A stretch of DNA of 64,000 nucleotides, from contig MU006099.1 of NCBI GenBank assembly GCA_010093705.1, positions 372,001 through 436,000 on the forward strand. Direction: 5' to 3'. Both the position numbers and the translations under genes were made by a program. Below the pieces are notes generated by a model. The model did no database searches. It was not told the origin of the DNA and was given only the letters and a program-made list of their open reading frames with translations. Within the stretch, counting starts at the first letter, position 1. Each line of letters opens with the position of its first letter. Origin of the DNA: Patellaria atrata CBS 101060. Its lineage: Eukaryota. Shown piece after piece: positions 13,157 through 60,029 of this stretch.

Positions 13157-15519
13157 TGTGGGTGAAGTTCTACAGACAGATGTCAATACTATGATGAAAG
13201 GACTACGGTATTTGTCTGACGAGCTCTAGTAAAAAAGCTTATTAAAGGGATATCACCGATTCATCGGACGTGGTGGTACGGGCGAAATCTGTCTTACGGG
13301 CTGCCGTAGTGTGGCGGCTTTCGACTCCGCGGGTGGCTTGACATGTGGCCGATGCTGGGGTGGCGGAGAATTCTCCGCGTGCCTCAAAAGGCCTTACCAT
13401 AAAGTTAAGCCCAAGGGACCGTCGAAATACGGGAATTATCCCGGTGTTTGTGTCCGGAGCTCTGCTTTGAGATCTGAAGGTTTTTGAGGTGATATAAGGG
13501 GGGATCATGAACGGATTGTAGCGTATCATCTGTGCACGTCTGTGCCCGCGATAATTCTATAGATTTCTATCTACGAAATCTCCTACTAAACGTCCGATTT
13601 TAAATTTTTAAAGTAGTAGAATTTATTCTTCGCTGTAGAGAATACTATATCTCTTTTTAGATTCTTAAAATTCTGACGTCTAGATAGGTTTTACATGGAG
13701 TTAGTGTTTAGTTTCTGATTAGCAGCGCTACAATCTATTCATGAGTCCCTCTTGTATCAAGCTGCTGGATAAGGTACAGAAGTAGGGAAGGGAATAGAAG
13801 ATGGAAAGCCACTTTCGTCGCTCCCTCTTGACAAGAATCCGAATTACTTCATAGGCGCAGTTGCAAGCCATTTGCATCATTTTAACAAAATTCTAGAAGT
13901 TGAAGAGTTGAAGAAATGGTAATTGAGGTCGAGAAGATAAGTCGTAATCAGGCCACTTCCACCAGCGGACCTTTCTGTAAGGAGAAGCATGACGTCGCAC
14001 TTTGTCAAAAATAGTTGTAAACAATCATTGATGAATACGTCATTCATGGATTCTCCAGATTAGAGGAATTGGCAAGCTGCATATGCCCGTCTTTTCGCAA
14101 CATGGCTCCTCAGCTAAAAGACGTCAGAGGCGCCTCGAGAGACCCGATCTGTGTCGGCCCTGTTGGGAAAAACGGTTAACGGAGCTTGAGGCGCAGTCCG
14201 CGGCTCATTTACTAAGGTAGAGCTAGAAATATTCAGGGTCTCTACCTATCGAATATAAAGAATAATAATGTCATGGAAAAGAGCTGTAACTTTGGTATAT
14301 CTATAGGGCTGAATTTACAGTAACTTATTCAAACTCAATGAGAATATAATGTGGTAAATGAATAAAGTAACTGCCATACCATGAAGTTCTTACAGTATTT
14401 CTCCAAATTTCCCTTTTCCAAGAGACCAAGGTACCTAGAACCTGAGTAAGGGATGGTCAATATCGAAAACTGATGATGGCGGGATGCAGAATCTCAATTG
14501 TCCTCTTGGGCTTGTAAAGTATAGTACGTACCATCAAGTGTGGCTTGACTTTCACACCATTTTTTAAGGTTACAGTAACTTACCGTCCCAGACCATGACC
14601 TAGATCGTTTAATCAGACCATAACCATTTCAATACCATTTTGGATACCCTTAAGAGCGTCATCATACGTCGCAAAATTTGCCCGCAACTCTGATGACCAA
14701 CCCCACCGCCTTACAACTTCCAAGCTTCATCACCGTTCCATCGTACTTACCTTATTCTCTGAAGCGTAAGTTTGGCCTCGCAAATACAGTATTGGATAAG
14801 ACCGGGCTTTGTCAACCAGAAAGATACTCCCTGTCTGGCTTCCCCAGGTCCACCTCACCTTCGTCTAGGCTTGACCTAAAAAGTGATCTTCCTAATTAGG
14901 TCCCTGTGACTCCATGACCGGTGATCCGATACTACTCATATTTGCCTTCCTGCGAGCGACCACCTAACCTTAGAAATTCCTCTTCACTCCCAAAACATCA
15001 ATTTCTACACTCCTTATCCCTTTAGGACTTGCTTGCACATACAACGATTGAATAATTTGCGGGCGTTTCCTTTGATTTCCATAGACATCCGCCACCGAGC
15101 TTTTGCAACACATCAGACCCCCCCTCAGGAACACGAAGCTCCTTTCAAATCACGTCTTCTCATATCGTTTTGTAACCCACGTCTGGATATTTCGAGAAAC
15201 CACACTCAGACCATAGAACACATTTTGGCGCATAGCGCACCAAATATGCATTCAACAGACTAGTTGATTCTCACTATCCCTGGCCTTTGAATTTCCGCTA
15301 CATCACAGAGGGGCTGGTGAAGACTCTGAAGACTCCCCGCATTCGAAAGATACTCCTTCACCGTCTCTCCTCCTCCCATACCTGGTTGCACCGGATACTT
15401 TATATTCTTCTAGAACTTGTGGAGTACTTGACAAAGGTCCTTTAGGCACCGTTCGTGCAATTCCTATCAGGAAGATTCCGGCCGTATCACACAGGAGTCT
15501 GGATCAAGAGGTGGAGAAT

Positions 15520-18500
15520 ATGGTACCACCGGGTCCAAGAGAACAAGGGGAGGGAGGTGGAGGGGAAGAATCACAACAAGAAGCTGAGCAGAGTACTGTT
15601 CCAGGTGCAGGTTTGGAATCTCAAAGCACACCAATGGAGTCAGCAGCGGATTCGATTACACCTACTCCACAATCAGTCGCAGTGAACACCACAAGTACAC
15701 GGCAACGGGGACGGTCAATATCAAGTCCGCCGCCGGAAGAAACTCTGCAACTAAGCCCCTCAGCGACCGATCGGGTATTTCCTATCCGCAGTGTCATAAG
15801 TGTTAACCCTACGCCTACACCATCAATGCCACACCGACGCGACCATTCAGAAGGCTACTTCTATAGGCCTACACGACATTCCTACGGCTCCGATACTTCT
15901 CAGGGACGAGCATCTGCAAAGGGTAGTGTTGGGGCTCAGTCTCAAGGCAGAGGGAAAGGGGACGCACCTAAAAAGCCATCACCTACACTAAGACCAAATG
16001 CACCTAGACTTCCTGCTCAAGTCTTCAGTGATATTGCTTCTAGCAAATCCGCAACAGAAAGTGGGGACCAACCCGGCGACGCTCCTCCTTCGGTTGGGGA
16101 CGCTTCATCAGTGAAGAGCACTTTCAGTACTGGTGATGATGCTGGGGGTCTGTATACTGCGCGATTTAAGCATGTCATAACCGATGGAGGTCACATGGTA
16201 ATCACTGGAAGGGACGGTGATTCTTTACAGCGCTGTGAGGATGAACCAATTCATATACCGGGCGCTGTACAAGGATTCGGGCTTCTCATCGCTCTCAAGG
16301 AGGAGTCCGATGGAAAACTCGTCGTACGAATCGCCAGTGAAAATGCGAAGCGCATCATCGGGTACACGCCAAAGCAACTATTTGCACTGGATAGCTTTAC
16401 GGATATCTTGTCAGAAGAGCAGGCCGATAATCTTCTAGATCACGTTGATTTCATTCGAGAAGACGAGAACGACGTACAAGCAAACGGGCCAGAAATCTTT
16501 ACAATGTCCATTCGTCCTCCTAACCGACGTACCCAGAAACTTTGGTGTGCGATGCACACTAACGATAACAATCCAGATCTCGTAATCTGCGAGTTCGAGC
16601 TTGAAGATGACCCTCTGAATCCATTGGTCCCTTCCGCTGAGAACTCTCCAGAAGTACCGGAGGATACACTCAGTAGTAACCCGACCCAGGAAGAGTTGGC
16701 CGAAAGCACTGAAAACCTCAGTCGCCCATTACGGATACTTCGTAGCGCTAGGAGGCGGAAAGGGGAAGCTGCTGCTATGGAAGTATTCAATATTATGTCT
16801 CAAGTGCAGGAACAACTTGGCTCAGCCCCGAGTCTCGAAAAGTTCCTCAAAATATTAGTGGGTGTGGTCAAGGAGTTGACTGGATTTCATAGGGTTATGA
16901 TATATCAGTTCGATCAATCTTTCAACGGAAAAGTTGTGACTGAGCTCGTGGACCCTCGGGCAACGAAAGATCTTTTCAAAGGTCTCAACTTTCCAGCATC
17001 TGATATACCCAAACAAGCAAGAGAACTGTACAAAATTAATAAAGTCCGCTTGCTCTATGACCGGGATCAGGAGACGGCAAGATTGGTTTGTCGAACAGCT
17101 GAAGACCTGGAAACTCCATTAGATCTTACACATGCTTATCTCCGTGCAATGTCTCCTATTCATCTCAAGTACTTAGCTAATATGCATGTGCGATCATCCA
17201 TGTCTATTTCAGTCAACGCATTCAACGAACTTTGGGGCCTTATAGCATGTCACTCGTACGGACCAAAAGGCAGGCGCGTATCTTTTCCAATACGGAAGAT
17301 GTGTCGTCTAGTGGGTGATTCAGCGTCAAGAAACATTGAGCGGTTATCTTATGCCTCCAGGTTACAAGCTAGAAAACTTATAAACACAGTTCCAACTGAA
17401 GCAAATCCTTCTGGGTACATTATTGCTTCGTCAGAGGATCTTTTGAAGCTATTTAATGCTGATTTCGGCCTTTTATCTATCCGAGACGAGACGAAGATTC
17501 TCGGACATATCGAGCAGTCTCAGGAAGCGTTGGCTATGCTCGAGTACCTACGTATGCGGAAACTGACCTCTGTCGTTAACTCCCATGATATAGCCGGCGA
17601 CTTCCCTGATCTAAAATATCCTCCAGGTTTCAAAGAGATTGCTGGGATGCTTTTCGTTCCTCTCTCCGTAGGTGGTTTAGATTTTATCGTCTTCTTCCGC
17701 AAAGGCCAACTAAAAAAGGTCAAATGGGCCGGTAACCCTTATGAAAAATTTATTAGGGAAGGCACTGAAAGTTATTTGGAACCCAGGAAGAGTTTCAAGA
17801 CTTGGAGTGAGATTGTGGTAGGAAAATCCCGTGAATGGACTGAAGAAGAGATAGAAACAGCTGCTGTACTCTGTCTAGTATATGGCAAGTTCATAGAAGT
17901 CTGGAGACAGAAAGAGGCGGTTATCCAGAGTACAGAGCTTACGAGACTGTTACTTGCGAACTCGGCCCATGAAGTACGAACACCTCTGAATGCAATTATC
18001 AACTACCTAGAAATCGCACTGGAAGGCTCCCTTGACATGGAGACAAGAGAGAACCTTGCCAAGTCGCATTCCGCTTCGAAATCTCTGATATATGTTATCA
18101 ATGATCTTTTGGATCTCACCAAAACGGAAGAAGGGGGAGAACTCGTCAAAGGGGAAGTCTTCGACTTGAGAGCCACACTCAAAGAGGCAACTGATATGTT
18201 CGTCCAGGACGCTAAGCGCAAAGGTATCGAATATTCTGTTAAGGAACACGAAGGACTTCCCCAATCGGTCATTGGCGATCAAAGAAAAGTACGGCAGGCA
18301 ATTTCGAATATTGTGGCAAACGCAATCCAACATACACTTACAGGTTCCGTCGCTGTGGAAATGTACTGCGTTTCTTGGAACGATCGACACGTCGAAGTGG
18401 AGCTCGCCGTGCAAGATACCGGAAAAGGCATGAATACTCGCCAGACCGATTCATTATTCCGAGACCTTGAGCAGGTGCAGTCAGAAGCTAATCTGCTGGA

Positions 18501-20086
18501 TCGATCTGCTCCCAAACCCCTCCCGGAAAAAGGGAAAGAAGCAGGAGCCCGTACCCTGGGCCTTGGTTTGGCAGTTGTGGCTAGGATTGTTCGTAACATG
18601 AATGGACAGTTACGCCTGAAATCCGAGGAAGGAAAAGGTTCTCGCTTCATTATCCAGTTTCCTTTCGATTTACCAGAAGGCGAAGAAGATCGCGAAGGCG
18701 AAACAAGCGTTCCCAGCTCCTCTCATGCCTCGATCGCACCGCAACCACCTGAGGCTGAGGGTGAAGTTACCCTCATAGCTCGGGACGAAGAAAGGAGCAC
18801 GCCTTCAAAACTAACACGGAGAGAAAGCGGCGATAGCCTCGAAAGCAGAAATAGTCTACGAAGTAACAAGAGCAGTGCTGCCGCCAGCGCCCACAGTGCT
18901 AAAAGCGACCTCAATCGCTTGATTGGAGCTATGCAGGAGACTTATGGCTCTGAAGTGAATCTACACCCTTCCCCGCGAAGTAGCTGGAGCGCAAAATCGC
19001 ATAAGCCGAGACTCGAGCGACGGCTTAGCCATGGAGCTGGTCTTCATTCGTCCCCGATACGAACGCGTGCGAGAAGTGTTGGAAATGCCTCCGCGGATCA
19101 ACCGCCATATGAAAGATCGACGAAACCGATGACGCCCGGGTTAGTGGAAATTAACTCTCAGGGCGTACCCCTGACGGCGGTCAAGATGCCGGATGATGGA
19201 TATTTCGAAAGAAAAAAACCCCTCGCAACGAGCTCTTCGGTGTTGGGAGAGGTGGAAGAACGCGCGGACCACATGATCGAAGCGACGAGTTTCGAGCACA
19301 TGCATGTCCTCGTTGCGGAGGACGATCCGGTGAATTCCAGGATCATGAGGAAGAGGCTTGAGAAAGCGGGGCACGAGCCGTACGTTACGAGTAACGGCGA
19401 GGAGTGCGCGACTATATATGCGGAGAAATCGGGGCTGTTTGATGTCGTGTTGATGGATATTCAGGTGAGTTTATCGTCCTGAGGAGGGATAACTCCTTCC
19501 TCTTCCTCTTTCCCTGGATATCAAGCGCGAGAATTGCTTGCTGATGAGGATATATGTACGCCAGATGCCAATCGTAGACGGCCTAACATCCACCCGTATG
19601 ATCCGCACCCTCGAAACCTCAACACCGCCGCCGCGCCTCTCGACGCGCGCTTCGCTCAACGGTCGCGTCCCCATCATCGCTGTCTCCGCCACCCTCGTCG
19701 AAAAAGATAGACAGATGTATATAGACGCCGGCTTCGACGGGTGGATCCTCAAGCCGGTCTCGTTCCCGCGGCTCGCGGAGCTGATGAGGGGGATTGTTGA
19801 TAAAGGGATGAGGGAGGAGAGTGTGTATAGTGGCGGGGATTGGGAGAAAGGGGGATGGTTTCATAGGGGGAAGAAGAGTGGAAGTGACGTTGATACTGGC
19901 CTGGTGGGGGGGATACCGGGTTTGCCCGATCGAGATGATAATGGGCCTTTGGAGGAGGCGAGGAGGGTTGGGGAGATGAGGGAGAGTGTGGATGCCGCGG
20001 AGACGAAGAGGGAGGAGGGTCTGAGGGATGTGGATGATGACGAGGTGGGAGAGAAGACGCCGGTGATGAGTCCGGAGCCGATATGA
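15520..20086 (+). CDS. fphA: Fungal phytochrome (PAS-GAF-PHY-HisKA-HATPase-REC hybrid histidine kinase), ~1488 aa; exons 15520-19464, 19565-20086
   Basis: Bilin-binding Cys context RCEDEPIHIPGAVQ, GAF motifs FPASDIP and LRAMSPIHLKYLANM, PHY tongue LEPRKSF, H-box SAHEVRTPLNAI, N/G boxes (NAIQHT, DTGKG, GLGLAVV). The receiver DVVLMDIQ|MP is joined by a 100-nt GTGAGT..CAG intron. Confidence 0.96.
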
Positions 20087-27481: not shown

Positions 27482-28460
27482 NNNNNNNNNNNNNNNNNNN
27501 NNNNNNNNNNNNNNNNNNNNNNNNNNNNNNNNNNNNNNNNNNNNNNNNNNNNNNNNNNNNNNNNNNNNNNNNNNNNNNNNNNNNNNNNNNNNNNNNNNNN
27601 NNNNNNNNNNNNNNNNNNNNNNNNNNNNNNNNNNNNNNNNNNNNNNNNNNNNNNNNNNNNNNNNNNNNNNNNNNNNNNNNNNNNNNNNNNNNNNNNNNNN
27701 NNNNNNNNNNNNNNNNNNNNNNNNNNNNNNNNNNNNNNNNNNNNNNNNNNNNNNNNNNNNNNNNNNNNNNNNNNNNNNNNNNNNNNNNNNNNNNNNNNNN
27801 NNNNNNNNNNNNNNNNNNNNNNNNNNNNNNNNNNNNNNNNNNNNNNNNNNNNNNNNNNNNNNNNNNNNNNNNNNNNNNNNNNNNNNNNNNNNNNNNNNNN
27901 NNNNNNNNNNNNNNNNNNNNNNNNNNNNNNNNNNNNNNNNNNNNNNNNNNNNNNNNNNNNNNNNNNNNNNNNNNNNNNNNNNNNNNNNNNNNNNNNNNNN
28001 NNNNNNNNNNNNNNNNNNNNNNNNNNNNNNNNNNNNNNNNNNNNNNNNNNNNNNNNNNNNNNNNNNNNNNNNNNNNNNNNNNNNNNNNNNNNNNNNNNNN
28101 NNNNNNNNNNNNNNNNNNNNNNNNNNNNNNNNNNNNNNNNNNNNNNNNNNNNNNNNNNNNNNNNNNNNNNNNNNNNNNNNNNNNNNNNNNNNNNNNNNNN
28201 NNNNNNNNNNNNNNNNNNNNNNNNNNNNNNNNNNNNNNNNNNNNNNNNNNNNNNNNNNNNNNNNNNNNNNNNNNNNNNNNNNNNNNNNNNNNNNNNNNNN
28301 NNNNNNNNNNNNNNNNNNNNNNNNNNNNNNNNNNNNNNNNNNNNNNNNNNNNNNNNNNNNNNNNNNNNNNNNNNNNNNNNNNNNNNNNNNNNNNNNNNNN
28401 NNNNNNNNNNNNNNNNNNNNNNNNNNNNNNNNNNNNNNNNNNNNNNNNNNNNNNNNNNNN
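27482..28460. other. Assembly gap (N run); probably hides the HSE1 promoter and first exon
   Basis: Run of N; HSE1 coding sequence resumes at a splice acceptor just after it. Confidence 0.99.
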
Positions 28461-28567
28461 NATCGAAAGCTATGGAAGTTGTACGCCACCAAGCTTAGGT
28501 CGTCGCCGGAACAAAATGCTCCAAGAAGTTCTTGATGGAGAGTTCTGGACGCTAACTTTTTGAATAG

Positions 28568-35308: not shown

Positions 35309-37121
35309 ACGTGCCGCATCGGTCAGTGGCCACAATCAGTCAGTGGCCACACCCCACTAAACCAACCGCGCTTTTTAGCTAATAGCGCTATAACAACAAA
35401 ATTGATTAAGCTAGAAATTAAGATAGAGATTCCTTAGATAGTAGTACATTGACGCCTGTTATAACCTTGGATATAGCACTTTGAGCATGTTGGTGGTGCG
35501 CGCTGGCGCGTAGTAGAGCCCTCGCTCGCCACCACCTCTGGTACCACATTATCCAGCTGCTCTACTAGCTGCTAGCCTGCCTGCGCCTGTAAAGCTCCTC
35601 CGCGAGCAATATACCTACGGCGGATATCCTGCTTCTGTCTACGGCGTTAAGATGCAGCTCGTAGCTCAGTAACCTCTCTAGTAAGGAGCGCAGTCTGAGC
35701 TAGTGCCATATGGCAGCTTTTAATAACTTGGTTAACTGCCTAGCTTGTAGGGCTCTGTAAGTTGCGCTGGAGAAGCTACTTAATAAGGTGAGCCTGCTGC
35801 TCAAGCTGAGTAGTAGTATGAGGTGTCTCTGCTGTCCAGGGCTCTCCGTGTGAGGTTGATGGAGGTGATGGAGTCTTTTTAATAACCGTTAGCGATGATA
35901 GTATACGCTGTGGATCAGCTGGCACGAGGCCTATAGCCTGGAAACCACTTCTAATTGTCTGCTCTATGAACACTATAGGCCGTGCCTCTCTATAGAGTAG
36001 TAGGAAGTCGAGCTTGTCAATATAGTGGATACCCTGCCGAGCTAGCTCCTGTACACCCTGTCCATATACTCGCTTGAGAGGAGAGAAGCAGCTGACGTCA
36101 AGCGGCTAGAGAAGGTGTGACGTATATACAGGCATATAAAGGGTAACTATCCTATTCTCTAGATAAAAGGTGTCGAATTCTGGTGTTATATGGCTACTAT
36201 GGCCGTCAACGATAAGTAATCGATAGGTACCGACTATACGCGCCCTTGTAGAGCTATTAAAGTGCTGTAGCCAGGCGAAACCAAGCTGATCAGTCGTCTA
36301 GCCATTATCACTGACTGCTAGCATCCAGTTGGTAGGTAGGTCTTGGTACCAGCTTGCCTGGTGGACCTTGCCTGCGAAGATAATAAAGGGTGGAATCGCC
36401 CATCCAGACGCGTTAATACATTCAATAGCTGTGACCCACTCGCGATTGCCTGGCTGTATAACTGCTCGCCGACCTATTGTATCTGAGCTTGTAATGACTT
36501 TTGATGTTGCTATAACCCCCATCATAAACCCAGTCTCGTCGAAATTGTACGTATCTTCATCAAGAATGCCGTATAATAGGCGCGTTACCTTAACACGCTT
36601 AAACCACGCGTTAATTGTCTCTAGATTCTCGCACCTGGCACGCTATGAGTGGAATCGACGATTCCACTTTGTCTGTAGCTCTGGCTGAGCCTTGATAAAT
36701 CGATTGACCCAGCATTTCCCGACTAGCTGGGGGGGAGTTGTCTGGCCGCGCGCAGCTAGTAGATGATCTGCCATCCGCCGTACGTCGATTATCTATGGTG
36801 GAAATCCGCGTCGGTCGAGTTCTAGTATCCACTGTACTAGAGACTGCTCCTCTAGTTGGTGTAGCTTTCGTTTCTGGGCATTGGTCGTAGCTTAGGGGAG
36901 GATACCATGGACGCGTCGGCGTAGCGTGGTTCGGGGGACGTTATATACTGCTGCAGCCTTTTTATAGCTTAAAATTTGCTTATTCTGAATTGCCTGCTTT
37001 GATAGAGCTAGTCTACCTTCCTTCTGGAGCTGCTGGGCGCTGTGTTGTAGTGGCATCGCGGGTTTGGTGGAAGACGTGTCGCGATTTTGGTGGGGTGTGG
37101 CCACTGACCGATGCGGCACGT
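35309..37121 (-). mobile_element. Fot1/pogo (Tc1-mariner superfamily) DNA transposon, ~1.81 kb, mutated in a RIP-like pattern
   Basis: TIRs ACGTGCCGCATCGGTCAGTGGCCACA at 35309 and the reverse complement ending at 37121. TA target-site duplication on both sides. Internal transposase remnants. Confidence 0.93.
35435..37056 (-). pseudogene. Fot1-type DDE transposase pseudogene
   Basis: MPLQHSAQQLQKEGRL..YNVPRTTLRRR (HTH), NFDETGFMMG, QPGNREWVTAIECI and DGH motifs. Many TAA/TAG stops at positions that look like former CAA/CAG codons. The C-terminal knuckle reads CSKCYIQGY versus CSNCHIQGH in the neighbouring copy. Confidence 0.9.
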
Positions 37122-37237
37122 TACCCGACTGAGTGCTTAGTCAGGTCTGATACCTAACGTGCTTTACCAGTCAGTGGGACACACCAGTCAGTGGGACATC
37201 CCACCAAAACCACCCCACGTCTTCAACAAAATCAACA

Positions 37238-38866
37238 ATGCCACTAACACAGAACCTTCAGAAGCTCCGGCAAGAAGGTAGATTACTTATTGCTACTAAG
37301 TCGCTTCAAGAAAACAGAATTTCAAGTGTCCGGAAGGCCGCCGGATTGTACGATGTTCCAAAGTCTACTCTCCATCGTCGCGTACATGGCATAACACCTC
37401 AGAGCGTGTCTAATTCGCAAAAACAAAAGCTAAAGCTATCTGAGCAGCAGGCGCTCGTAGAATGGGTCCTAGATCTCGACCGACGCGGATTTCCGCCCCA
37501 TATCATCGACGTACGACGAATGGCAGACCATTTACTCGCGGCACGCGGCCAGAATCCTCCTCCCACACCCGTTGGTAAGAACTGGGTATGCCGCTTTATC
37601 AACAACCAGCCAGACCTACAGACAAAATGGAATAGGAAGTTCCATTCTCAACGCGCGAAATGCGAAGATCGAGACATATTTCGCGAGTGGTATGGGCGTG
37701 TAAACGAGACGCGCCAGAAGTATGGCATCCTAGACGAAGATAGCTACAACTTTGACGAGACTGGATTTATGATGGGTGTATCTGCGACATCAAAAGTCGT
37801 TACAAGCTCTGATACTATAGGCCGAGCAATTCTCATACAACCAGGCAATCGCGAATGGTCAACGGTGATTGAATGTATTAATGCCACCGGGTGGGCAATC
37901 CCGCCCTTCGTTATCCTTCCAGGAAAGCTCCACCAGTCAAGCTGGTATCAGGATCTACCCGGTAACTGGATGCTCGCTGTTAGCGATAATGGCTGGACAA
38001 CAAATAAGTTAGGATTCGAATGGATTAAGCACTTTGACAACTGTACAAAGTCTTATACAAAGGGGATCTACCGTCTACTTATACTTGACGGTCATGGTAG
38101 CCACGCAACGCCTGAATTTGACCAATACTGTATGGAAAATAAGATTATTACCCTCTGCATGCCGTCGCATACGTCANNNNNNNNNNNNNNNNNNNNNNNN
38201 NNNNNNNNNNNNNNNNNNNNNNNNNNNNNNNNNNNNNNNNNNNNNNNNNNNNNNNNNNNNNNNNNNNNNNNNNNNNNNNNNNNNNNNNNNNNNNNNNNNN
38301 NNNNNNNNNNNNNNNNNNNNNNNNNNNNNNNNNNNNNNNNNNNNNNNNNNNNNNNNNNNNNNNNNNNNNNNNNNNNNNNNNNNNNNNNNNNNNNNNNNNN
38401 NNNNNNNNNNNNNNNNNNNNNNNNNNNNNNNNNNNNNNNNNNNNNNNNNNNNNNNNNNNNNNNNNNNNNNNNNNNNNNNNNNNNNNNNNNNNNNNNNNNN
38501 NNNNNNNNNNNNNNNNNNNNNNNNNNNNNNNNNNNNNNNNNNNNNNNNNNNNNNNNNNNNNNNNNNNNNNNNNNNNNNNNNNNNNNNNNNNNNNNNNNNN
38601 NNNNNNNNNNNNNNNNNNNNNNNNNNNNNNNNNNNNNNNNNNNNNNNNNNNNNNNNNNNNNNNNNNNNNNNNNNNNNNNNNNNNNNNNNNNNNNNNNNNN
38701 NNNNNNNNNNNNNNNNNNNNNNNNNNNNNNNNNNNNNNNNNNNNNNNNNNNNNNNNACCAGAACTGGGCTGGTCAGACGCGACAGCGAGCAGCACCAACG
38801 TGCTCTAACTGCCATATCCAAGGCCACACAAGGCGTCAATGTACTAGTGTCTCAAGTAGCTCCTAA
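37238..38866 (+). CDS. Fot1-type transposase (HTH-psq, HTH-CENPB, DDE_1, C-terminal CCHC knuckle), interrupted by an assembly gap
   Basis: No stops in the sequenced parts. Motifs YDVPKSTLHRR, GKNWVCRF, YNFDETGF, LLILDGHGSH, CSNCHIQGHTRRQC. Confidence 0.85.
   Translation: MPLTQNLQKLRQEGRLLIATKSLQENRISSVRKAAGLYDVPKSTLHRRVHGITPQSVSNSQKQKLKLSEQQALVEWVLDLDRRGFPPHIIDVRRMADHLLAARGQNPPPTPVGKNWVCRFINNQPDLQTKWNRKFHSQRAKCEDRDIFREWYGRVNETRQKYGILDEDSYNFDETGFMMGVSATSKVVTSSDTIGRAILIQPGNREWSTVIECINATGWAIPPFVILPGKLHQSSWYQDLPGNWMLAVSDNGWTTNKLGFEWIKHFDNCTKSYTKGIYRLLILDGHGSHATPEFDQYCMENKIITLCMPSHTSXXXXXXXXXXXXXXXXXXXXXXXXXXXXXXXXXXXXXXXXXXXXXXXXXXXXXXXXXXXXXXXXXXXXXXXXXXXXXXXXXXXXXXXXXXXXXXXXXXXXXXXXXXXXXXXXXXXXXXXXXXXXXXXXXXXXXXXXXXXXXXXXXXXXXXXXXXXXXXXXXXXXXXXXXXXXXXXXXXXXXXXXXXXXXXXXXXQNWAGQTRQRAAPTCSNCHIQGHTRRQCTSVSSSS
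38177..38756. other. Assembly gap (N run) inside the transposase
   Basis: Run of N. Confidence 0.99.
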
Positions 38867-39824
38867 GTATAATTTTATTTGAATATATTTTGTTGTAGTG
38901 GAGTAATTGTATGAAAACGCTGGTTGATCTTGGTGGGGTGTCCCACTGAGTGGTGTGTCCCACTGACTGGTAAAGCACGTTACCTTTAATTTGATATCCG
39001 CAACTCAAAAACAAAACAGGGGCCATTTTCTTGGTGCCTCCCTTTTGCTTTGTTGCCCAACAGACAATTCTGTGAGAGCTTGGAAAATAACGCGATCAAG
39101 AGCAAGCGGCTTTTATACGGTCCTGGGTTGCGAGACCGGCGGCAATATTCCTTCTGCGGGCAGTGATCGCAGTGATCAAATCTCCATTGGTGTTTTCAAG
39201 GATGTCCTATTATCGTATCCATTTCATCAACAGATTATAGACTGTAGAGTATAAGTTGGACGTTTAAGAATTATGAAAGTTATCTCCTTGAGCGTTTCTC
39301 TACCAGAAAAGTGAGCAGGAGCCTCATCGCGTTATCTCTCCAGCCGTATACATATCGACGGTCTGGGTTTTGACCGTTTGCATCTTAGGGGTTGTTTATA
39401 GCTATCCTGCCGTGGATCCACTTGAATAGGGGAGAAGCGCAGACTGCCAGATCTGGTTTCACCTAATCGTCTCAGCTATTTTGCTAGGTGAATTTCGTTT
39501 CTTATTATTGTTTACTCGTTTTGGGCTATCTCCTTTTTGAACCATGCTGTAAGTTCATGTCTGATCCTTTCTTGACTATAAACTATCCAAATTGCTGGAC
39601 GATGAGGAATAGAGGTCGGTTCATTGCAGAGATCTCGGTTGAAGTAATAGTAATCGGTCGAGAAAGGCGATATTGTCAGGAAATGGCTTGAACATTAGTC
39701 ATGTCCCAAATAGGAGCTTCCACCTAACATTCTTTCAGTCAAACGGGGCAAACAAGGTACATATATCCCGCCCAACCACTTGAAGCTTATCAACAAAAGA
39801 ATCGTCACTGCTTTCCATAACCCA

Positions 39825-39981
39825 GGGCCTGTGGCCTAGTGGTGGGAAAGTCCCCACCACACCGATCAGGCCAAATACGGCAACTGGTCCTGGGGTCGAT
39901 TCCTTCGGGCCCCGAGCTGGGGGCAGCAGATGTACCACGTCCTCTTCGGAGAGCGTGGGAACTGTTTTGCCATTTTTTTTT
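39825..39981 (+). ncRNA. Candidate Pol III structured RNA / tRNA-derived SINE-like element, copy A
   Basis: Perfect A box TGGCCTAGTGG (39832-39842) and near-consensus B box GGGTCGATTCC (39893-39903). Acceptor-like stem GGGCCTG/CGGGCCC and inserted hairpin GTGGTGGG..CCCACCAC. These are followed by GCAGATGTAC-CACGTCCTC TTCG GAGAGCGTG-GGAACTGTTTT and a T9 terminator-like run. It does not fold as a canonical tRNA. Confidence 0.6.
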
Positions 39982-40349
39982 CCCCCCTAATATTAATTCT
40001 TCCTCAATTTAGTTTTCTGATGACTATCTATCTATCTTTTGATTCTTCACTGACTTGAAGGGCGAGGTAGGGTTGTTATTTGTTTGGTATCTCTATATGT
40101 GTATTTCTTGTGAGACCGTTGCGAGAGGATTTCAAAAGTCGTATTGATGGTTTCAAGAAGTTTATTTAAGAGTTTGAAGGGTCCGCTCGGTCCGCTCCCG
40201 GAGATAACTAGAACTAAGCTCCGAAAAGTAACATCAATTGCTAATTTACCATACCAAGCACAATCAAACCCTAAAGATAATTTTCTACACTGTCGAATTA
40301 ATTTCAAAGCATCCAAAACACTAGAACAGGTTGGTCTTTTACTACTAAT

Positions 40350-41466
40350 ATGTCTAACACTGCGGTAATCAAACCAGGCAACACTTCTCTCATCACCGGC
40401 GGAGCGTCAGGGATCGGTCTTGCTGTTGCAACATTATGTCGTAAGCATGGTATGCGCGTTGCTATTGTCGACTATAGCAATGAGTATCTTGCCAAAGCAA
40501 AAGAGATACTTGGAGGGTCAGAAGATGTAGAGACGTATCAAGTTGACGTTAGCGACCTGAATCAATTGCACCGACTCAAGGACAAGGTTCTTGAGAGGTT
40601 TGGTAGCGTAGAGTTTCTGATGCTGAATGCCGGCGTGAGCGCGAAGGGAGGTTGGAATGATGTGGACTACTTCCATAAGGTATGGATAGAACGTTGGGAA
40701 ACTATCCACTAATATGACCTCTAGAGTCCTCGTATTCATTTCAACAGCTAATCAACGTTGCCCACTAGATTCTTGATACGAATCTCTACGGCGTCATAAA
40801 CGGTATTTCTACCTTTATGCCCGTCGTAACATCCGCTAGCGGGCCATCCGCGATTGTTATCACTGGTAGTAAGCAAGGTATCACGAACCCGCCCGGAAAT
40901 CCTGCCTACAATGCCTCCAAAGCAGCTGTGAAGGCACTCGCAGAGCATCTGAGCTACGATCTGAGAGATACGAAGACGAGCGTGCATTTATTGGTACCTG
41001 GATGGACTTTTACTGGTATGGTGAGTAGCTATTTCCTCCCCCTAGGATGATTTCGTCGGTTCACCCTCTCTCTAAGTCGGAAATAACTACCAAAACACAA
41101 TGTTTAATACCGTGCAATTCTGCAATACTGACATATATTTCTCTACATTCTCAGTCCGGAGGAGGCCCTCTCTCCAACACTGAGAAGCCGGCAGGTGCAT
41201 GGTGGCCTGAACAAGTTGCAGATTATCTTTACCAGAAGATGGACGAAGGCAAGTTCTACGCCATATGCCCTGATAATGATGTAACATCGGACATGGATAA
41301 GAAGCGTATGCTTTGGAGTAATGGTGACTTAGTTGATGAACGCCCGGCATTATCGAGGTGGAGGGAGACCTGGCAGGACGACGTGAAAGCGTATATGAAA
41401 AGAGACTTAAATGATTTGATGGGCTCTCCCAATCTGTCACAGATGGGTAATGAAATCGAAGAATGA
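40350..41466 (+). CDS. Short-chain dehydrogenase/reductase (~297 aa); exons 40350-40679, 40769-41020, 41155-41466
   Basis: TGGASGIG Rossmann motif, LNAG, catalytic YNASK; two canonical introns in phase. Confidence 0.92.
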
Positions 41467-41794
41467 ATTGAGTTCAAAGGAAATAAATACTAAAGATCTT
41501 TGAACGGAGTACAGTGTTATGACCATTACCCACCACCAAACCACCCTTTTAAGCTTTGTAAGATTGAGATGATACTCAGCTGTTGTTGTAGACTGGCAAT
41601 ATGATCAATCAAGAGGGGTCCAGCAGAACAATTTCTCAAAGAGACACCGATCCTAAAATGGAATTCGGTCTGTGCGTTAGCTCCCGTCCTGACGTTACGC
41701 GGCAAATGTTGCCTTGCACGGAGAGCTACAAAACCCCCCATCTCACTTCTTCCGAATAATATCGAAAAGGATAGTGTTTACAATTTGATTCAGA

Positions 41795-42521: not shown

Positions 42522-43662
42522 TGAACTGGTTACGGCTCCGATACGCGAACTAGAGGTCTCACGTTGACCAAACTAATGCTTACGAGTACAATTATACTTA
42601 TATATGCAATATGTTTCATGGTGAATCCTACCTTCGGACTTTGTAGTAGACATACAACCACCAACAAAGCTCGCTTTCTCCCATCCGTTTGTCAGATGGT
42701 AGACCAGAAGAGCAGTTCCTATTTGGAGCGGTGCCTGCGGTACAGCACAAGAATAAGAAGAACTGGGTAGGTGATTTCACAGAACTCATTTCTCAGATAA
42801 AGCAGGAGGGTACTGGCGGTTTTGCTAGCTGCACCGGAATTTTCTGACCTCACTAAACGATGTCAGCTACAGTCAAAATTTTACTAGCTACAGCTACTTT
42901 TCCCTGGTAACAACTCCTCTATATAAGATAGCTCTGGAAAAGTTGAAGTAATATCTCAATTGCGCGAAAGTTGTCAAAAGTCTCTCAAACACACACTGAA
43001 CTCTATATCAGCCCAATTCTTTATTCTAGCATTGACTAAGCTGCGGTCAGGCCCCAAATCCACTTATTATTCGAACAATACATCCAGCATCCAGCCTTTT
43101 AACTAACCGTCTCAAATGCACGATACCACAACTATGCTTCCTTCCGGAAGCCCCCGGCAACGTGGCATTCGCTGACCGAGCAACCCTAGAACGCCACGAT
43201 CCTTTCCGTGTGCAGAAACAGGTCTAGCGTAAAAAAAAAGTACATTTCCCTAAAGAGGTAAATGCCAGAATCTTTGCCTACTTCCACCCCAAGTTACCGA
43301 CATAACCCATCAGCCGCACACAAGGCGACCATTTCAGGCCCACCAACAAGGTACGAGTTGACGCACCTCCAAATCCTGAGTCAAAGACGCTATAATTAGT
43401 AATCACGAAGTCGATTCGTTGATACCACTCGATGTTGCTTATTCAGCCACGCATATGCGGGTGAAGAAAGATAAAAGTGTTAAATATGAATAGACTATAA
43501 CCCAACCCATAAGTACCGATTCAACCCCCTTCCTCGCTCGTTCTTCTCTCTCTCCTCTTCCCTTCCCATAACACGTATGAAGCCCCACCTCAGCCAGTGA
43601 ATAAAAACCCCCAATTCTTGATTCGCCTAAAAATAAAAAATCCCCCAAACACCACATCCACC

Positions 43663-46600
43663 ATGACCCCCAAAGAGCCCAAATCCCCCATTCCCACCAC
43701 AATCCCTACCCTCCTCCACGCCCGCCTCCTCTCCGCCCCCTCCTCCCCCGCCATCCTCACCCCCACCCTCACCCTCACGACCCACCAGCTCTGGACCATC
43801 TCAACGCACATCCGCACCCGCATCCCCATTACACCAGGCACGGTAGTCGTGCTCTGCATGCGCCGGTCGTGGCGGCTCGTCGCGTGCATGCTTGCGGTCT
43901 TGCGCGCGGGCGCGGCGTATGTGGTTCTTGACCCTGAGGAACCGGCGTTCAGGAATATGGGGGTGGTTGCGGAGTTGGGGGACCGGAGGGGGGTGGTTGT
44001 GGGTGAGAGGGATGTGGGGTATCTTGGGAAGGTGTGGGATGTGGATTGCGTTGTGGGTGTTGGGGGGGAGGTGAGGTGGGCTGGTGAGGTTGAGGAGGAG
44101 AGTGGGGTGAGGAATGGGGTGGAGAATAGGGTGCGAAATGGAGTGCGAAATGGAATGCAAAATGGAGTGGATAATGGAGTGAAGGACGCAGCGGAGCCAA
44201 ATGATCTAGCATATCTAGTTTTCACGTCCGGATCCACGGGACGGCCGAAGGGCGTTATGGTCACCCATACCGCAGCATGTTCTGGTATATCGTATTTCTC
44301 GCTCGCCGGGAAGACACGCTGGTTGCTTTTCTTCAATCCGGGGTCGAGCGCGGCGCAGAGGGCCGTATGGGGGACCCTAATCCACGGAGGGTGTCTCTGC
44401 ATCGCGGGTAAAGAGGATGTCACGGCGTCGTTGGCGAGGACGATATGCGATATGGAAATCGACGGCATCGGGCTTACGCCGTCGGCGCTTTCGTTGATGA
44501 GTCCGGACGAGGTACGCGGCTTGAAGATGATTATCATGGTGGGCGAACGGGTGGATGGGAAGATTGTGGAGACTTGGGCGGGCAGGGTTGAGTTGTGGAA
44601 TTTTTATGGGTTGAGTGAGTGTACGCAGATGAATTTTGGGAAGAGATTGCTACCTGGTGGTGATCCTACATGTGTGGGCCGTCCGTCGGATACAGTGTCG
44701 GTCATGATTGTGGATAGTGACAGTAAGGCGATTGTGTCCAAAGGGAACGTGGGAGAAATATGTCTCACCGGCCCTCAACTATCGAAGGGTTACTGGGGCC
44801 GAGAGAACGAGACGGCGGAAAGATTCGTCAATAACCCTTTCAACGAGGGACAGATGCTGAAAACTGGAGATCTGGGATATGAAGATGAGGATGGGATACA
44901 TGTTGTAGGAAGAGACGACTTTCAGGTGAAAGTAGATGGTCAGAAAGTCGCGCCAGAGGAAGTCTCTGCACAGCTCGCAAACTATCCCGGAATAAAGGCA
45001 TGTTCTGTGTTTGGTTGCCAATTGGGCGGCTGGCCCGCTCTTGTTGCTGCTATTGCGACAGATGATTTTGGGTCCTGGGATAATACGAGCCAAAGGGTCC
45101 AATCAATACGGTCTTTCCTAACTGAGAGGATACCATCTTACATGATGCCGCATTATTGGTTACCGCGACATTCGATGCCCTTCGGACATAATGACAAGAT
45201 CGATATCCAAACCCTTCGCAAAGAAGCTGAACAGCTAGGAGCTGAGGGATTGAGAAAGCTCATACAAGGAGCCGATACCCGATTCGCAGGTTTATCTGAG
45301 ACCGAAGAGGTTATACGAGCCTCTTGGGCCAGTGTACTTGGAATACCAAAGGAATCTATCGGGCCTCAACATTCCTTTTCGCTTCTAGGTGGAACCTCTT
45401 TGCAAGCGTTGAGGGTCATAGGAAAACTACGGACAGAAGGAATTCTCCTCGAGTTACGCGATATATTCTTGACTGGTAATCTTTCTGAGGCAGCTCTAAG
45501 AAGTCGGCGGATTGAAGACACAGCGGACAAGGGAGATGTTGAAGTTGTACCATTCTCCTTGATACCCGAGGAACCTCTTCGTCAAGGACTTCAAAGTCAA
45601 GGGGGTGTAGAAGACGCATTTCCCGCCACACCCGTGCAATTGATGTTACTGATGGCGAGTCTTCGTGGACATAAAGGATACGTCTACCAAAGGAAGTGGG
45701 ATATGACCGGAATAAATCCACAGATGCTTAAAGAAGCGTTTCGAACTGTTTTCCAAGAGAGCCCTACGCTCCGATCGGTATTCATTCCAGGGAAGGCCGG
45801 TTTCACCCAATTGGTACGCACGGATTTGGAGCTCCCCTGGGAAGAAGACAGCTCCAGTACAATCGAGGAATTTGTGAAAAGCGACTTAGAAGAACAAGTC
45901 GTACTTGGAGAGCTTATGTGGAGAGTAACGTACGTGACTAAAGCCAATGTCCTTGTGGTAACAATGCACCACTCTCTTTTCGATTTCTGGTCACATCGAT
46001 TTCTGTACCAAGACGTTGCAAACGCATACTTTGGCTTCTCTCACAACCCACGACCTCCATTCCAAAGGTTCGTACGTTGGTTGCAAGAATTAGAATCCGA
46101 AGAATCAGCGACTTTCTGGGAAGACTACAAAAAAAAGGTCAGACCCACACTGATCAACACAGAAAAGACAGAAGAATACACTCACGTATTCAAACCCGCT
46201 CCCCCCGCCCTTGCTACCTCAATGACAGATATTGGCCTCACGATCGCCTCGGTCGTATACGCAGCTTGGGCGATAACCATGGGCAAAGCAACCGCACAAG
46301 ACGCCGTATGTTTCGGCACGCTGTTCGCATCTCGCGATATCCCAGTCCAAGACATCGCGCGCATGGACGGTCCTGTCTTCACACTCGCCGCTCAGGCGAT
46401 CGAACTACCCGGTAGCAAAACCGTCCGGGAAATAGCAACTTCCATCTATGATGGTCAATGGGACTTGACCGCCCATTCCCAATGGCGGCTGAAACAGTTT
46501 GTCAGGGAAGGCGTACAGCCACCGGTATTTGATACGATGGTTGATATTCTGATCGCTGACCATGGTGAGGAGGATGTCGTGGCGAAGCGGTTGTTCAAGC

Positions 46601-46809
46601 GATTCGGGGCTAGACCGGCGTGGGATACGACGTTTACGGCGCTGTATTTGATGGAAGACGATGGGGAGTTTAGTTTTGCGATTACTTCATTACTGCCGGA
46701 GAGCAAGGTAAGACAGTTGTTGGATACTGTCATTGCAGTCATCCATGCCATTTTGGATGTAGACGACCCTGCTATCCGACTGGAAGATCTCTTGAGCCGT
46801 CTTGATTGA
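43663..46809 (+). CDS. Single-module NRPS (A-T-C), 1048 aa
   Basis: A-domain motifs LAYLVFTSGSTGRPKG, NFYGLSE, GEICLTG, KTGDLG, GRDDFQVKVDG, NDKID; carrier site FSLLGGTSL; condensation motif MHHSLFD. First ATG at 43663. Confidence 0.92.
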   Translation: MTPKEPKSPIPTTIPTLLHARLLSAPSSPAILTPTLTLTTHQLWTISTHIRTRIPITPGTVVVLCMRRSWRLVACMLAVLRAGAAYVVLDPEEPAFRNMGVVAELGDRRGVVVGERDVGYLGKVWDVDCVVGVGGEVRWAGEVEEESGVRNGVENRVRNGVRNGMQNGVDNGVKDAAEPNDLAYLVFTSGSTGRPKGVMVTHTAACSGISYFSLAGKTRWLLFFNPGSSAAQRAVWGTLIHGGCLCIAGKEDVTASLARTICDMEIDGIGLTPSALSLMSPDEVRGLKMIIMVGERVDGKIVETWAGRVELWNFYGLSECTQMNFGKRLLPGGDPTCVGRPSDTVSVMIVDSDSKAIVSKGNVGEICLTGPQLSKGYWGRENETAERFVNNPFNEGQMLKTGDLGYEDEDGIHVVGRDDFQVKVDGQKVAPEEVSAQLANYPGIKACSVFGCQLGGWPALVAAIATDDFGSWDNTSQRVQSIRSFLTERIPSYMMPHYWLPRHSMPFGHNDKIDIQTLRKEAEQLGAEGLRKLIQGADTRFAGLSETEEVIRASWASVLGIPKESIGPQHSFSLLGGTSLQALRVIGKLRTEGILLELRDIFLTGNLSEAALRSRRIEDTADKGDVEVVPFSLIPEEPLRQGLQSQGGVEDAFPATPVQLMLLMASLRGHKGYVYQRKWDMTGINPQMLKEAFRTVFQESPTLRSVFIPGKAGFTQLVRTDLELPWEEDSSSTIEEFVKSDLEEQVVLGELMWRVTYVTKANVLVVTMHHSLFDFWSHRFLYQDVANAYFGFSHNPRPPFQRFVRWLQELESEESATFWEDYKKKVRPTLINTEKTEEYTHVFKPAPPALATSMTDIGLTIASVVYAAWAITMGKATAQDAVCFGTLFASRDIPVQDIARMDGPVFTLAAQAIELPGSKTVREIATSIYDGQWDLTAHSQWRLKQFVREGVQPPVFDTMVDILIADHGEEDVVAKRLFKRFGARPAWDTTFTALYLMEDDGEFSFAITSLLPESKVRQLLDTVIAVIHAILDVDDPAIRLEDLLSRLD

Positions 46810-58214: not shown

Positions 58215-60029
58215 ATGGGAATACCTCATCCACTATTTCTTTTCATTGCTGCTGCTACTTCTAATCTTATACCCCGTCTAACCTCTGTCAAACTTTCTCT
58301 TTGGTCTTATTTTTGGGTTGCAGCCGGTTTCTATTCTATTCAGGTCGTAGTTTTTGGCTTTTACCATGTAATCCTATGGCCTAAGTTCCTCTCTCCACTT
58401 CGTCACATACCTGGTCCGAAGGTAAGCTATCTCCTTGCGTATGGAAAGTCACCATACGCTAAATAATATATCTAGGATGGGAATTTCTTTATGGGTCAAT
58501 TCACGACTATCATCCGTGAACCAAGTGGAGAGCCTTTGCGGCGCTGGACCAGGGAGATCCCTCATGAGGGACTTATCAAGTACACTCATGTGTTCAACTC
58601 GGAACGGGTAGCACCAGTATCCCCAAAAGCGCTGTCTGAAGTGCTCGTCACTAAGAACTATGAATTTGTCAAACCTGAGAGACTACGGAAAGGCCTCGGA
58701 AGGATATTGGGAGTGGGTGTCTTAGTAGCGGAGGGAGACGAACATAAGGTAAATCCAAATTCCCTTCATCTTATTGGGTACAGCAGCAGTTTTTCATTTT
58801 TACTTTTTAATCCTTGAAATTTCCTGTCCGCAAATCACACCACCACTGATGTTCTGTAGCGACAACGCAAATTGCTTGCGCCGGCCTTCGCCTTTCGCCA
58901 CATTAAGAATCTGTACCCACTGTTCTGGCGCAAGACTCAAGAATGTGTTAGGCAGATGCAGTTTGCCCTTCCCTCCGATCGTGTTATTGACATTGGAGAC
59001 TGGGCATCACGCATCACGCTCGACATTATTGGCCTTGCCGGCGTTGGTCAGGATTTCAACTCCATTTCAGACCCTTCAAATGCCCTTAACCAGACCTACC
59101 GTAAAATTTTTGGCCAACCCAGAATGACTCTAGCGTTTCAGCTTGCAGGATTCTTTCTTCCTCAATGGTTTCTCCGAGCACTTCCCGTCCAGCGTAACAG
59201 GGATTTTAAGGAGGCAATCGCCACTATCAAGAAAACCGCCAGGGAACTGATAGCCGCAAGGAGAGACCGTTTCGCGCAGCAGAAAAACGAAAAAGGAAAC
59301 GATCCAGAAGCGGAAAAGGAATTGGACGTCCTCTCAGTCGCTATGAAATCCGGCGGCTTCAGCGACGAAGATCTGGTAAACCAGCTAATGACATTCCTAG
59401 CAGCAGGGCACGAAACCACATCATCAGCCATGCAATGGGCGGTCCATCTCCTCTGCAGGCACCCTAAAATCCAAACCAAACTGCGGGAGGAACTAAGAGC
59501 TGCGCTCCCAGATATAAGAGACCCCAACGCCAGCATCACGAGCACGGACATCGATCGCCTCGCCTATCTTCAAGCCGTCTGCTCGGAAACACTGCGACTG
59601 ATACCACCAGTCGCCGTAACAATCCGCATAGCCGCAAAAGATACCAGCATCGTGGAACAGTTCATACCGAAAGGGACAACGATTGTGCTTTCTCCATGGA
59701 CGGTGAACACCTCTCCTCAATTGTGGGATGATCCGATGACCTTCAAGCCGGAGCGCTGGCTTAGCAGTATGAACCCCACAAAAGCGGCTAATGGAGGAGC
59801 GGATAGCAATTTTGCATTCATGACATTCTTACATGGGCCAAGGAGTTGCATAGGTGGTACATTGGCGAGGAGCGAGTTTGCGGTTATACTTGCTGGATGG
59901 GTGTTGGCTTTTGAGATGGCGTTGGAGAAACCTTGTGAGCCTGATGAGATGGTCGAGATTCAGAGGGGGGCTATAACTGCAAAGCCGAGAGGCGGTTCGA
60001 AAGTGGTATTGACGCCGGTGAAGAGATGA
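58215..60029 (+). CDS. Cytochrome P450 monooxygenase (~549 aa); exons 58215-58421, 58476-58748, 58860-60029
   Basis: N-terminal membrane anchor plus PGP, I-helix AAGHETT, ETLR, PERW, and heme motif FLHGPRSCIG. Confidence 0.95.

Follow-up and report, generated by a model that had tools for sequence, protein, structure and literature searches.

Among the described systems closest to the locus treated here are the AfuSINE2 elements of Aspergillus fumigatus, low-copy tRNA-related SINEs of 140–493 bp that lie dispersed in an estimated 1–5 copies (PMC5063351). The unit that concerns us occupies positions 39825–39981, on the + strand, of what we call the window, that is, the whole 64-kb stretch of DNA that was analyzed. 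AfuSINE2 elements are like it in joining a tRNA-derived head, in which the A and B boxes lie, to a body unrelated to tRNA, and in being few and dispersed; they are unlike it, as the accessible part of that paper describes them, in having target-site duplications (TSDs) of 4–14 bp and, in one case, an (ACT)n tail of LINE-like character, whereas our unit ends in a T run (PMC5063351). None of the AfuSINE2 sequences in Table 1 of that paper resembles the unit, the comparison having been made by eye only (PMC5063351).

A more general picture comes from the rules by which SINE-Finder and AnnoSINE look for SINEs: 25–50 nt between the A and B boxes, 20–500 nt from the B box to the tail, and a tail of poly A, poly T, or low-complexity sequence (PMC8825457). 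To judge from the available portion of that work, the unit is like the plant models in its A–B spacing, in the distance from B box to tail, and in the poly T tail that they allow, but those models belong to plant families that have no sequence relation to it, and the TSDs that define plant SINEs adjoin the tail, where none is seen in the unit (PMC8825457). In the portion of the paper on Au SINEs that was accessible (PMC5787218), we found no statement on T tails.

Similar parts can also be put to a very different use. In Neurospora crassa, Pol III transcribes milR-4 together with tRNA-Ala genes, milR-4 needs RNase Z, and TATA-like elements matter for the Pol III transcription of another Neurospora microRNA-like gene, milR-1 (PMC3547838). 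According to the accessible text, milR-4 and the tRNA-miRNA units of murine gammaherpesvirus 68 resemble our unit in combining Pol III, a tRNA-type structure, and then a hairpin and an oligo-T run, and in them an RNase Z cut behind the tRNA moiety frees the hairpin (PMC3547838). They differ in that a true tRNA, or something that closely mimics one, makes up their tRNA moiety and that their small RNAs have been shown by experiment (PMC3547838), whereas the head of our unit fails the tests for a tRNA. MicroRNA-like RNAs of the milR-4 type are marked by co-transcription with a tRNA and by small RNAs that depend on RNase Z and Dicer and are bound by Argonaute. The milR-4-type shape itself, a hairpin with arms of ~23 nt directly behind an acceptor-like stem, is what the predicted fold of the unit would give.

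Finally, there are the Helenus TRIMs, reported from basidiomycetes, whose LTRs hold tRNA-like Pol III promoters (PMC10886601). Like our unit, these are short repeats, dispersed and bearing tRNA-like A and B boxes; in fungal genomes they inflate tRNA-like predictions; unlike it, in the part of the source at hand, they have paired LTRs, a PBS and a PPT, and 5-bp duplications, none of which was found at the unit (PMC10886601). Of the marks of a Helenus-type TRIM, the window holds no second copy of the unit, and the fitting termini and a 5-bp duplication were unseen at its borders.

In this report we have tried to focus on one question: is this unit a new and unique RNA gene, or is it one copy of a mobile element that merely happens to carry the dress of a gene? 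The preliminary description of the unit left both possibilities standing, having named it either a functional noncoding RNA or a tRNA-derived SINE. Most likely, we will argue, it is the second of these, a mobile element of the familiar SINE type.

Anatomy and folding of the unit

The preliminary description had claimed for this stretch an acceptor-like strand of 7 nt, an A box that fits its consensus perfectly, a B box that departs from its own at one position, and the complementary acceptor strand, as well as an extra 8-bp hairpin in the D-loop position, a UUCG-capped 3' hairpin, and a T9 run. Every one of these parts is present and in its place, and the type-2 Pol III architecture that the same description saw in them (A box, B box, closed acceptor-like stem, and oligo-T) is there in full. 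The parts are listed below, along with the leader and the candidate duplication on the 5' side.

39799–39810, no strand assigned: candidate 5' copy of a TSD, matching 40041–40052 at 10 of 12 positions and abutting the start of homology at 39811
39811–39824, + strand: leader of 14 nt common to other copies, starting ~21 nt upstream of the A box
39825–39831, + strand: acceptor-like 5' strand GGGCCTG, pairing with 39906–39912
39832–39842, + strand: A box TGGCCTAGTGG, an exact fit to the consensus TRGCNNAGTGG
39839–39860, + strand: hairpin of 8 bp, GTGGTGGG/CCCACCAC, with the loop AAAGTC, in the D-loop position
39864–39889, + strand: second predicted hairpin (GAUCAG GCC ... GGC .. CUGGUC), in the position of the anticodon or variable arm
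39893–39903, + strand: B box GGGTCGATTCC, with one mismatch to the consensus GGTTCGANTCC
39906–39912, + strand: acceptor-like 3' strand CGGGCCC, forming seven pairs with the 5' strand, one of them G.U
39913, + strand: discriminator-like C after the acceptor-like 3' strand
39922–39971, + strand: 3' hairpin by fold prediction, with arms of ~23 nt and a C(UUCG)G loop (UUCG at 39945–39948)
39930–39934 and 39959–39961, + strand: AUGUA/GAA internal loop of the 3' hairpin
39965–39968 and 39973–39981, + strand: T4 and T9 runs, read as a Pol III terminator, a T-rich tail, or both

Between the end of the A box and the start of the B box lie 50 nt. In yeast tRNA genes the start site of Pol III is expected ~20 nt upstream of the A box, and the start of the leader, at 39811, would fall at about that position.

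Could parts as short as these have come together by accident? The A box at 39832 is the sole A box on either strand of the 64-kb window, the B box at 39893–39903 is the only one in the window (at one mismatch or fewer) that lies 25–75 nt behind an A box, and the T9 run is the only run of at least nine T on the + strand of the 64 kb. In 100 random windows drawn from a Markov-1 model, there were on average 0.73 A boxes and 0 pairs of A and B boxes. The A box, the B box, and the T run together exceed chance.

The folds predicted for the unit are also better than one would expect of its composition. The head (39825–39913) folds at -44.2 kcal/mol, with a z of -2.73 and with 1 of 200 dinucleotide shuffles folding as well; for the 3' hairpin (39921–39971) the values are -21.3 kcal/mol, a z of -2.76, and 2 of 200 shuffles, and for the full unit of 157 nt, the z is -2.34. 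The free minimum-energy fold (MFE) does without the acceptor stem, and a fold in which that stem is closed costs just 0.2 kcal/mol more. The T arm of the head is weak, with 3–4 pairs, and the 3' hairpin includes a U.G pair at 39940.

That hairpin carries one further resemblance. The consensus of the sarcin-ricin/5S loop-E (bulged-G) motif is AGUA/GAA. The unit is like it in setting GUA opposite GAA between two helices and unlike it in reading AUGUA/GAA, so that a U stands before the G where the consensus has A; the loop-E that had been proposed for this hairpin thus keeps its GUA/GAA letters and loses the base in front of them, and it remains a resemblance. A 5S-derived tail, an idea prompted by the same GUA/GAA loop, was rejected on the absence of a 5S match in Rfam.

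The head is not a tRNA, for all that it begins and ends like one. With default settings, ARAGORN reports 0 tRNA genes in the window, and with -ps and -ps90 it likewise reports nothing; only when the threshold is lowered to 80% does it offer a weak 89-nt "tRNA-Trp," whose variable arm is long and whose anticodon stem contains two C.C mismatches. The tRNA model of Rfam finds no match in 39700–40100, even at E values up to 10. A canonical tRNA gene was accordingly rejected, on its poor cloverleaf and on the negative results of ARAGORN and of the Rfam tRNA model, in agreement with the earlier view that the unit has no proper anticodon arm and is no tRNA.

Nor is it any other RNA that Rfam knows. 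Rfam 15 gives 0 matches at gathering score in the whole 64-kb window, and among its known Pol III and small RNAs (5S, U6, SRP, RNase P/MRP, 7SK, Y, vault, and snoRNAs), there is no match; the earlier failure to place the unit with U1–U6, 5S, SRP, or RNase P/MRP has now been run as an Rfam check and holds. When 39700–40100 was scanned at E values up to 10, the only matches were mir-345, STnc320, and ceN111, at chance-level E values of 0.83–8.8 and with scores far below gathering. Since Rfam has no match and ARAGORN no proper tRNA, we take the head to be tRNA-derived at its ends and yet no tRNA.

There is also no sign of a protein. The minus-strand open reading frame at 39735–39986, which runs across the unit, belongs to no Pfam family, and a minus-strand frame of 59 aa, compared with 1.84 billion protein representatives, has no real relatives, and so there is no evidence that the frame at 39735–39986 codes. 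The three protein matches that the 59-aa frame did bring up were set aside as irrelevant, all of them being tandem-repeat proteins that match in many short stretches at 35–59% identity.

The unit is thus a real element of Pol III type, and probably a transcribable one. Is it, however, the only one of its kind?

A dispersed, diverged repeat family

It is not. The unit is a member of a dispersed and diverged repeat family. The evidence comes from public sequencing runs that hold the locus, of which there are two (here X1 and X2), both from one sample and both probably of DNA, with no RNA run found; the sample may itself be the source of the window's assembly. Contigs of the two runs were aligned to 38900–41600 at a likeness of at least 80%, and their depth was summed. 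This sum runs over contigs and, as the tool itself warns, is not a copy number: in the flanks it is flat, at 329 (X1) and 493 (X2); over 39810–39900 it climbs to 2655 and 3708, ~8x the flank; over 39901–39991 it reaches 4374 and 6294; and beyond the unit it is back at 319 and 467. At single positions, the depth is ~10x that of the flank at 39827, 17x at 39940, and 20–23x at 39954, and no part of the unit is repeated more than the 3' hairpin, at 13–23x.

The contigs themselves tell the same story. At 39940, C instead of T is found in 10 distinct contigs of X1 and 14 of X2. The contigs of the locus proper break within the head, where pieces of 891 nt and 3432 nt overlap at 39819–39845, as assemblers do at repeats. 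Among the 16 aligned pieces listed, of 203, are long contigs (4.6–30 kb) with pieces 84–92% like this copy, and behind 39981, the flanks of the copies agree at only 0.54–0.56, which suggests that they sit at different loci. Within the 64-kb window there is no second copy, the unit sharing with the rest of it only words of 13 nt or fewer. The preliminary description had wanted the genomic copies counted, and the contigs of X1 and X2 answer with a family on the order of 10–20 copies, a figure that is rough because it rests on depth sums that are not copy numbers and on one sample. Of the two possibilities that the description had left standing, contig depth and the diverged copies favor the repeat, or SINE, over the functional noncoding RNA.

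Where does the repeated unit begin, and where does it end? In several copies homology starts at 39811. From there the acceptor strand is 14 nt away and the A box 21 nt; one copy aligns already from 39784. The copies end at 39968 or at 39981 and then pass into T-rich stretches of other, longer lengths. A start near 39811 and a T-rich end make the repeated unit about the same as the predicted transcript. Between these ends the family is uneven: the middle, from ~39873 to 39905–39920 and including the region of the B box, aligns poorly between copies, and some contigs show pieces of head and tail only. Tails outnumber heads (~17–23x against ~10x), which fits 5' truncation.

Single copies differ from this one at 8–16% of positions, and yet only three substitution sites in the unit (39827, 39830, and 39940) reach the listing threshold of at least 10%. 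Few common sites in spite of so much divergence imply that most differences are private and that this copy is near the family consensus, and the pattern would fit a star-like decay from a source close to it. Most copies have C at 39940, which turns the U.G pair into C-G, and the T-to-C differences at 39830 and 39940 both change a G.U into a G-C in predicted stems. Such changes would fit pairing that has been kept, and a C-to-T decay in this copy would fit them equally well.

Upstream of 39811 matters are different again. There, 3–4 copies are like one another (agreement 0.74–0.78) and unlike this copy, and they carry a TATA-like ATAAATA; the shared sequence looks more like a DNA-level duplication, or a conserved upstream promoter, than like the mark of independent insertion, and it counts against a SINE.

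Relatives beyond this genome were also sought. A 21-mer taken from the 3' hairpin and run against metagenomes brought up two loci with no similarity beyond the 21-mer, and both were rejected as chance matches in GC-rich, unrelated DNA. The same 21-mer has no match in the full text of papers, and a full-text search of the literature found no tRNA-derived SINE-like element described in Dothideomycetes.

What kind of element?

The reading we prefer, and one that we would believe and doubt in about equal measure, takes the unit for a SINE-like element: a near-consensus copy of a dispersed repeat of Pol III type that is tRNA-derived and low in copy number. A SINE2 has an internal type-2 promoter within a tRNA-related head, and here the perfect A box, the B box with its single mismatch, and the complementary acceptor strands supply one. 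A SINE2 also has dispersed copies at unrelated loci, and such copies are present in the contigs of the one sample. The tail, too, varies in length, from the T9 seen here to T-rich runs of other lengths in other copies, but a T run may be a tail and is also a terminator, and so it cannot separate SINEs from genes. Taken together, a start near the predicted start site, a T-rich end, a tRNA-derived head, an unrelated body, dispersal, and an excess of tails over heads amount to the anatomy of a tRNA-derived SINE.

How might such an element work? The tRNA-like head with its A and B boxes, the family-specific body (the UUCG-capped hairpin), and the T-rich end would form one Pol III unit. TFIIIC would occupy the A and B boxes inside the unit. 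Transcription by Pol III would begin near 39811, ~20 nt ahead of the A box, and terminate in the T run, to give an RNA of ~160 nt. From time to time a reverse transcriptase acting in trans would have returned such RNAs to the genome as DNA. A SINE2 moves through RNA with the help of a partner LINE, which often has the same 3' end; in the window, among the 15 open reading frames of at least 200 aa that were scanned, there is no LINE or reverse-transcriptase frame. Transcription, its start and stop points, and retroposition are all steps that we infer.

A SINE2 is also flanked by TSDs, for which the preliminary description had asked; around this copy there is no convincing one. The best candidates are the 10/12 repeat, whose score 101 of 300 shuffles also reach and which is therefore not significant, and an exact 8-mer (39778–39785 and 40053–40060), of which we estimate that ~0.4 would be expected by chance. 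The 3' partners of both sit 60–70 nt beyond the T9 run. The 20 nt at 40041–40060 thereby match two separate upstream stretches (the 8-mer and the 10/12 12-mer) in swapped order, neither match being significant on its own. Between the T9 run and these downstream direct repeats lies, at 40020–40040, a short (CTAT)n-like simple repeat with AT-rich, low-complexity DNA, and other copies likewise run into AT- or T-rich sequence behind the unit.

If the unit is SINE-like, as is most likely, the family would be a new one of an ordinary kind. It would then add an undescribed tRNA-derived repeat to the Dothideomycetes. It would also serve as a caution to annotators that a tRNA-like Pol III unit in the intergenic DNA of a fungus can be a repeat and need not be a unique RNA gene.

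One could, however, read the same copies as genes. On this account, which we think unlikely but worth a hearing, the family consists of functional multi-copy Pol III small-RNA genes, and the degenerate tRNA-like head drives transcription and also offers a handle for processing. Cuts by RNase P and RNase Z at the acceptor-like stem would set free a 3' hairpin of ~60 nt, whose role would be that of a stable structured RNA or of a substrate for Dicer (a microRNA-like RNA). Much of the anatomy would suit such genes, since the A box, the B box, the 7-bp acceptor-like stem, and the discriminator-like C are intact, the terminator is strong, and the hairpin has arms of ~23 nt and a folding z of -2.76. 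N. crassa milR-4 is a fungal precedent, and the TATA-like motif upstream of some copies recalls elements that matter for Neurospora milR-1 (both in the accessible part of PMC3547838). Even the commonest T-to-C differences, at 39830 and 39940, make G-C out of G.U and so keep the pairing, but C-to-T decay in this copy explains both sites just as well. The copies, moreover, are only 84–92% like this one, with a B-box region that cannot be aligned in several of them, which looks like neutral decay. The handle itself is shaky, the T arm having only 3–4 pairs and the free MFE lacking the acceptor stem (though the closed fold is just 0.2 kcal/mol worse), and neither the metagenome 21-mer scan nor the protein search found a relative in another species.

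A bolder version can be built by analogy, and we regard it as distinctly unlikely. These Pol III genes would use their degenerate tRNA-like promoter as an RNase P/RNase Z handle to free a UUCG hairpin of ~60 nt with a loop-E-like bend; the hairpin would be a protein-binding RNA or a Dicer substrate, with decayed sister copies as possible targets, and the whole would be a counterpart of milR-4 and of the herpesvirus tRNA-miRNA units that has been amplified in a Dothideomycete. Were the tRNA handle true, it would be a second fungal example of small-RNA production driven by such a handle, and it would offer a compact natural Pol III cassette made of a tRNA-like promoter, a hairpin, and a terminator.

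Might the unit instead be a broken piece of something larger? A solo LTR, or some other fragment of a mobile element whose Pol III promoter is tRNA-like (a Helenus-type TRIM, for instance), or else the conserved ends of a small DNA transposon whose middle varies, would account for the pattern of conservation, in which the ends are kept (39811–39848/39873 and 39905/39940–39968) and the middle differs or is absent in some contigs; the joints of head and tail in those contigs have short sides of only 21–30 nt, however, and may be artefacts of alignment. Fungal TRIMs with A and B boxes in their LTRs do exist, often as solo LTRs of 120–320 bp, but in the accessible part of the source, the reports of fungal Helenus are confined to Pucciniales and a few Agaricomycetes and include no ascomycetes (PMC10886601). 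Here, the lack of a second copy in the 64-kb window means that there is no LTR pair, the borders of the unit are without TG..CA and a 5-bp duplication, and no terminal inverted repeats were seen by eye. We consider this origin very unlikely.

It is just as hard to credit, and in our view highly improbable, that the copies are no more than decayed tRNA pseudogenes, spread by segmental duplication with neither transcription nor mobility, their hairpins being incidental. Such an origin would sit well with a head that is tRNA-like only at its ends, with upstream sequence that some copies have in common, and with the want of a convincing TSD at this copy. It sits badly with the fact that most copies share only ~160–170 nt, whose limits fall close to the predicted start site and the T run, and no long flanks; with the perfect A box and strong terminator; and with the tRNA-unrelated 3' hairpin, which surpasses the rest of the unit both in conservation and in the number of its repeats. 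A Helitron (TC...hairpin...CTRR between A and T), a MITE (terminal inverted repeats), and an LTR (TG..CA with a 5-bp duplication) were each rejected by eye because their termini do not fit.

The neighborhood

A short-chain dehydrogenase gene starts ~370 bp downstream of the unit, and one of its exons is 99% identical to a protein of the Dothideomycete Patellaria atrata CBS 101060 (NCBI), the next best match being 68%; the window is fungal. With the unit ~370 bp upstream of that gene, a bound complex of TFIIIC and Pol III could affect its neighbor.

On the other side, upstream, lie two frames of Tc5/pogo-type DDE transposases, arranged head to head at 35776–36940 (- strand) and 37151–38866 (+ strand). 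The + copy has DDE_1, HTH_Tnp_Tc5, and HTH_psq domains and is interrupted by a masked N run at 38177–38756; the - copy is broken into several frames. Between these copies and the unit there are ~830 bp of single-copy DNA. At 38900–38990, just behind the + copy, the depth in X1 and X2 is ~43x that of the flank, which indicates that this Tc5/pogo-type transposon family is abundant in the genome.

Farther off, there is a second masked N run, of 980 bases, at 27482–28461. One open frame of 1098 aa, at 43513–46809 (+ strand), has AMP-binding, PP-binding, and Condensation domains and looks like a non-ribosomal peptide synthetase module, and a cytochrome P450 lies at 58860–60029; the two may belong to a secondary-metabolite cluster. 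Finally, a frame of 1404 aa at 15268–19482 (+ strand), with PAS_2, GAF, PHY, HisKA, and HATPase_c domains and the start of a receiver domain, has the make-up of a fungal phytochrome-type histidine kinase.
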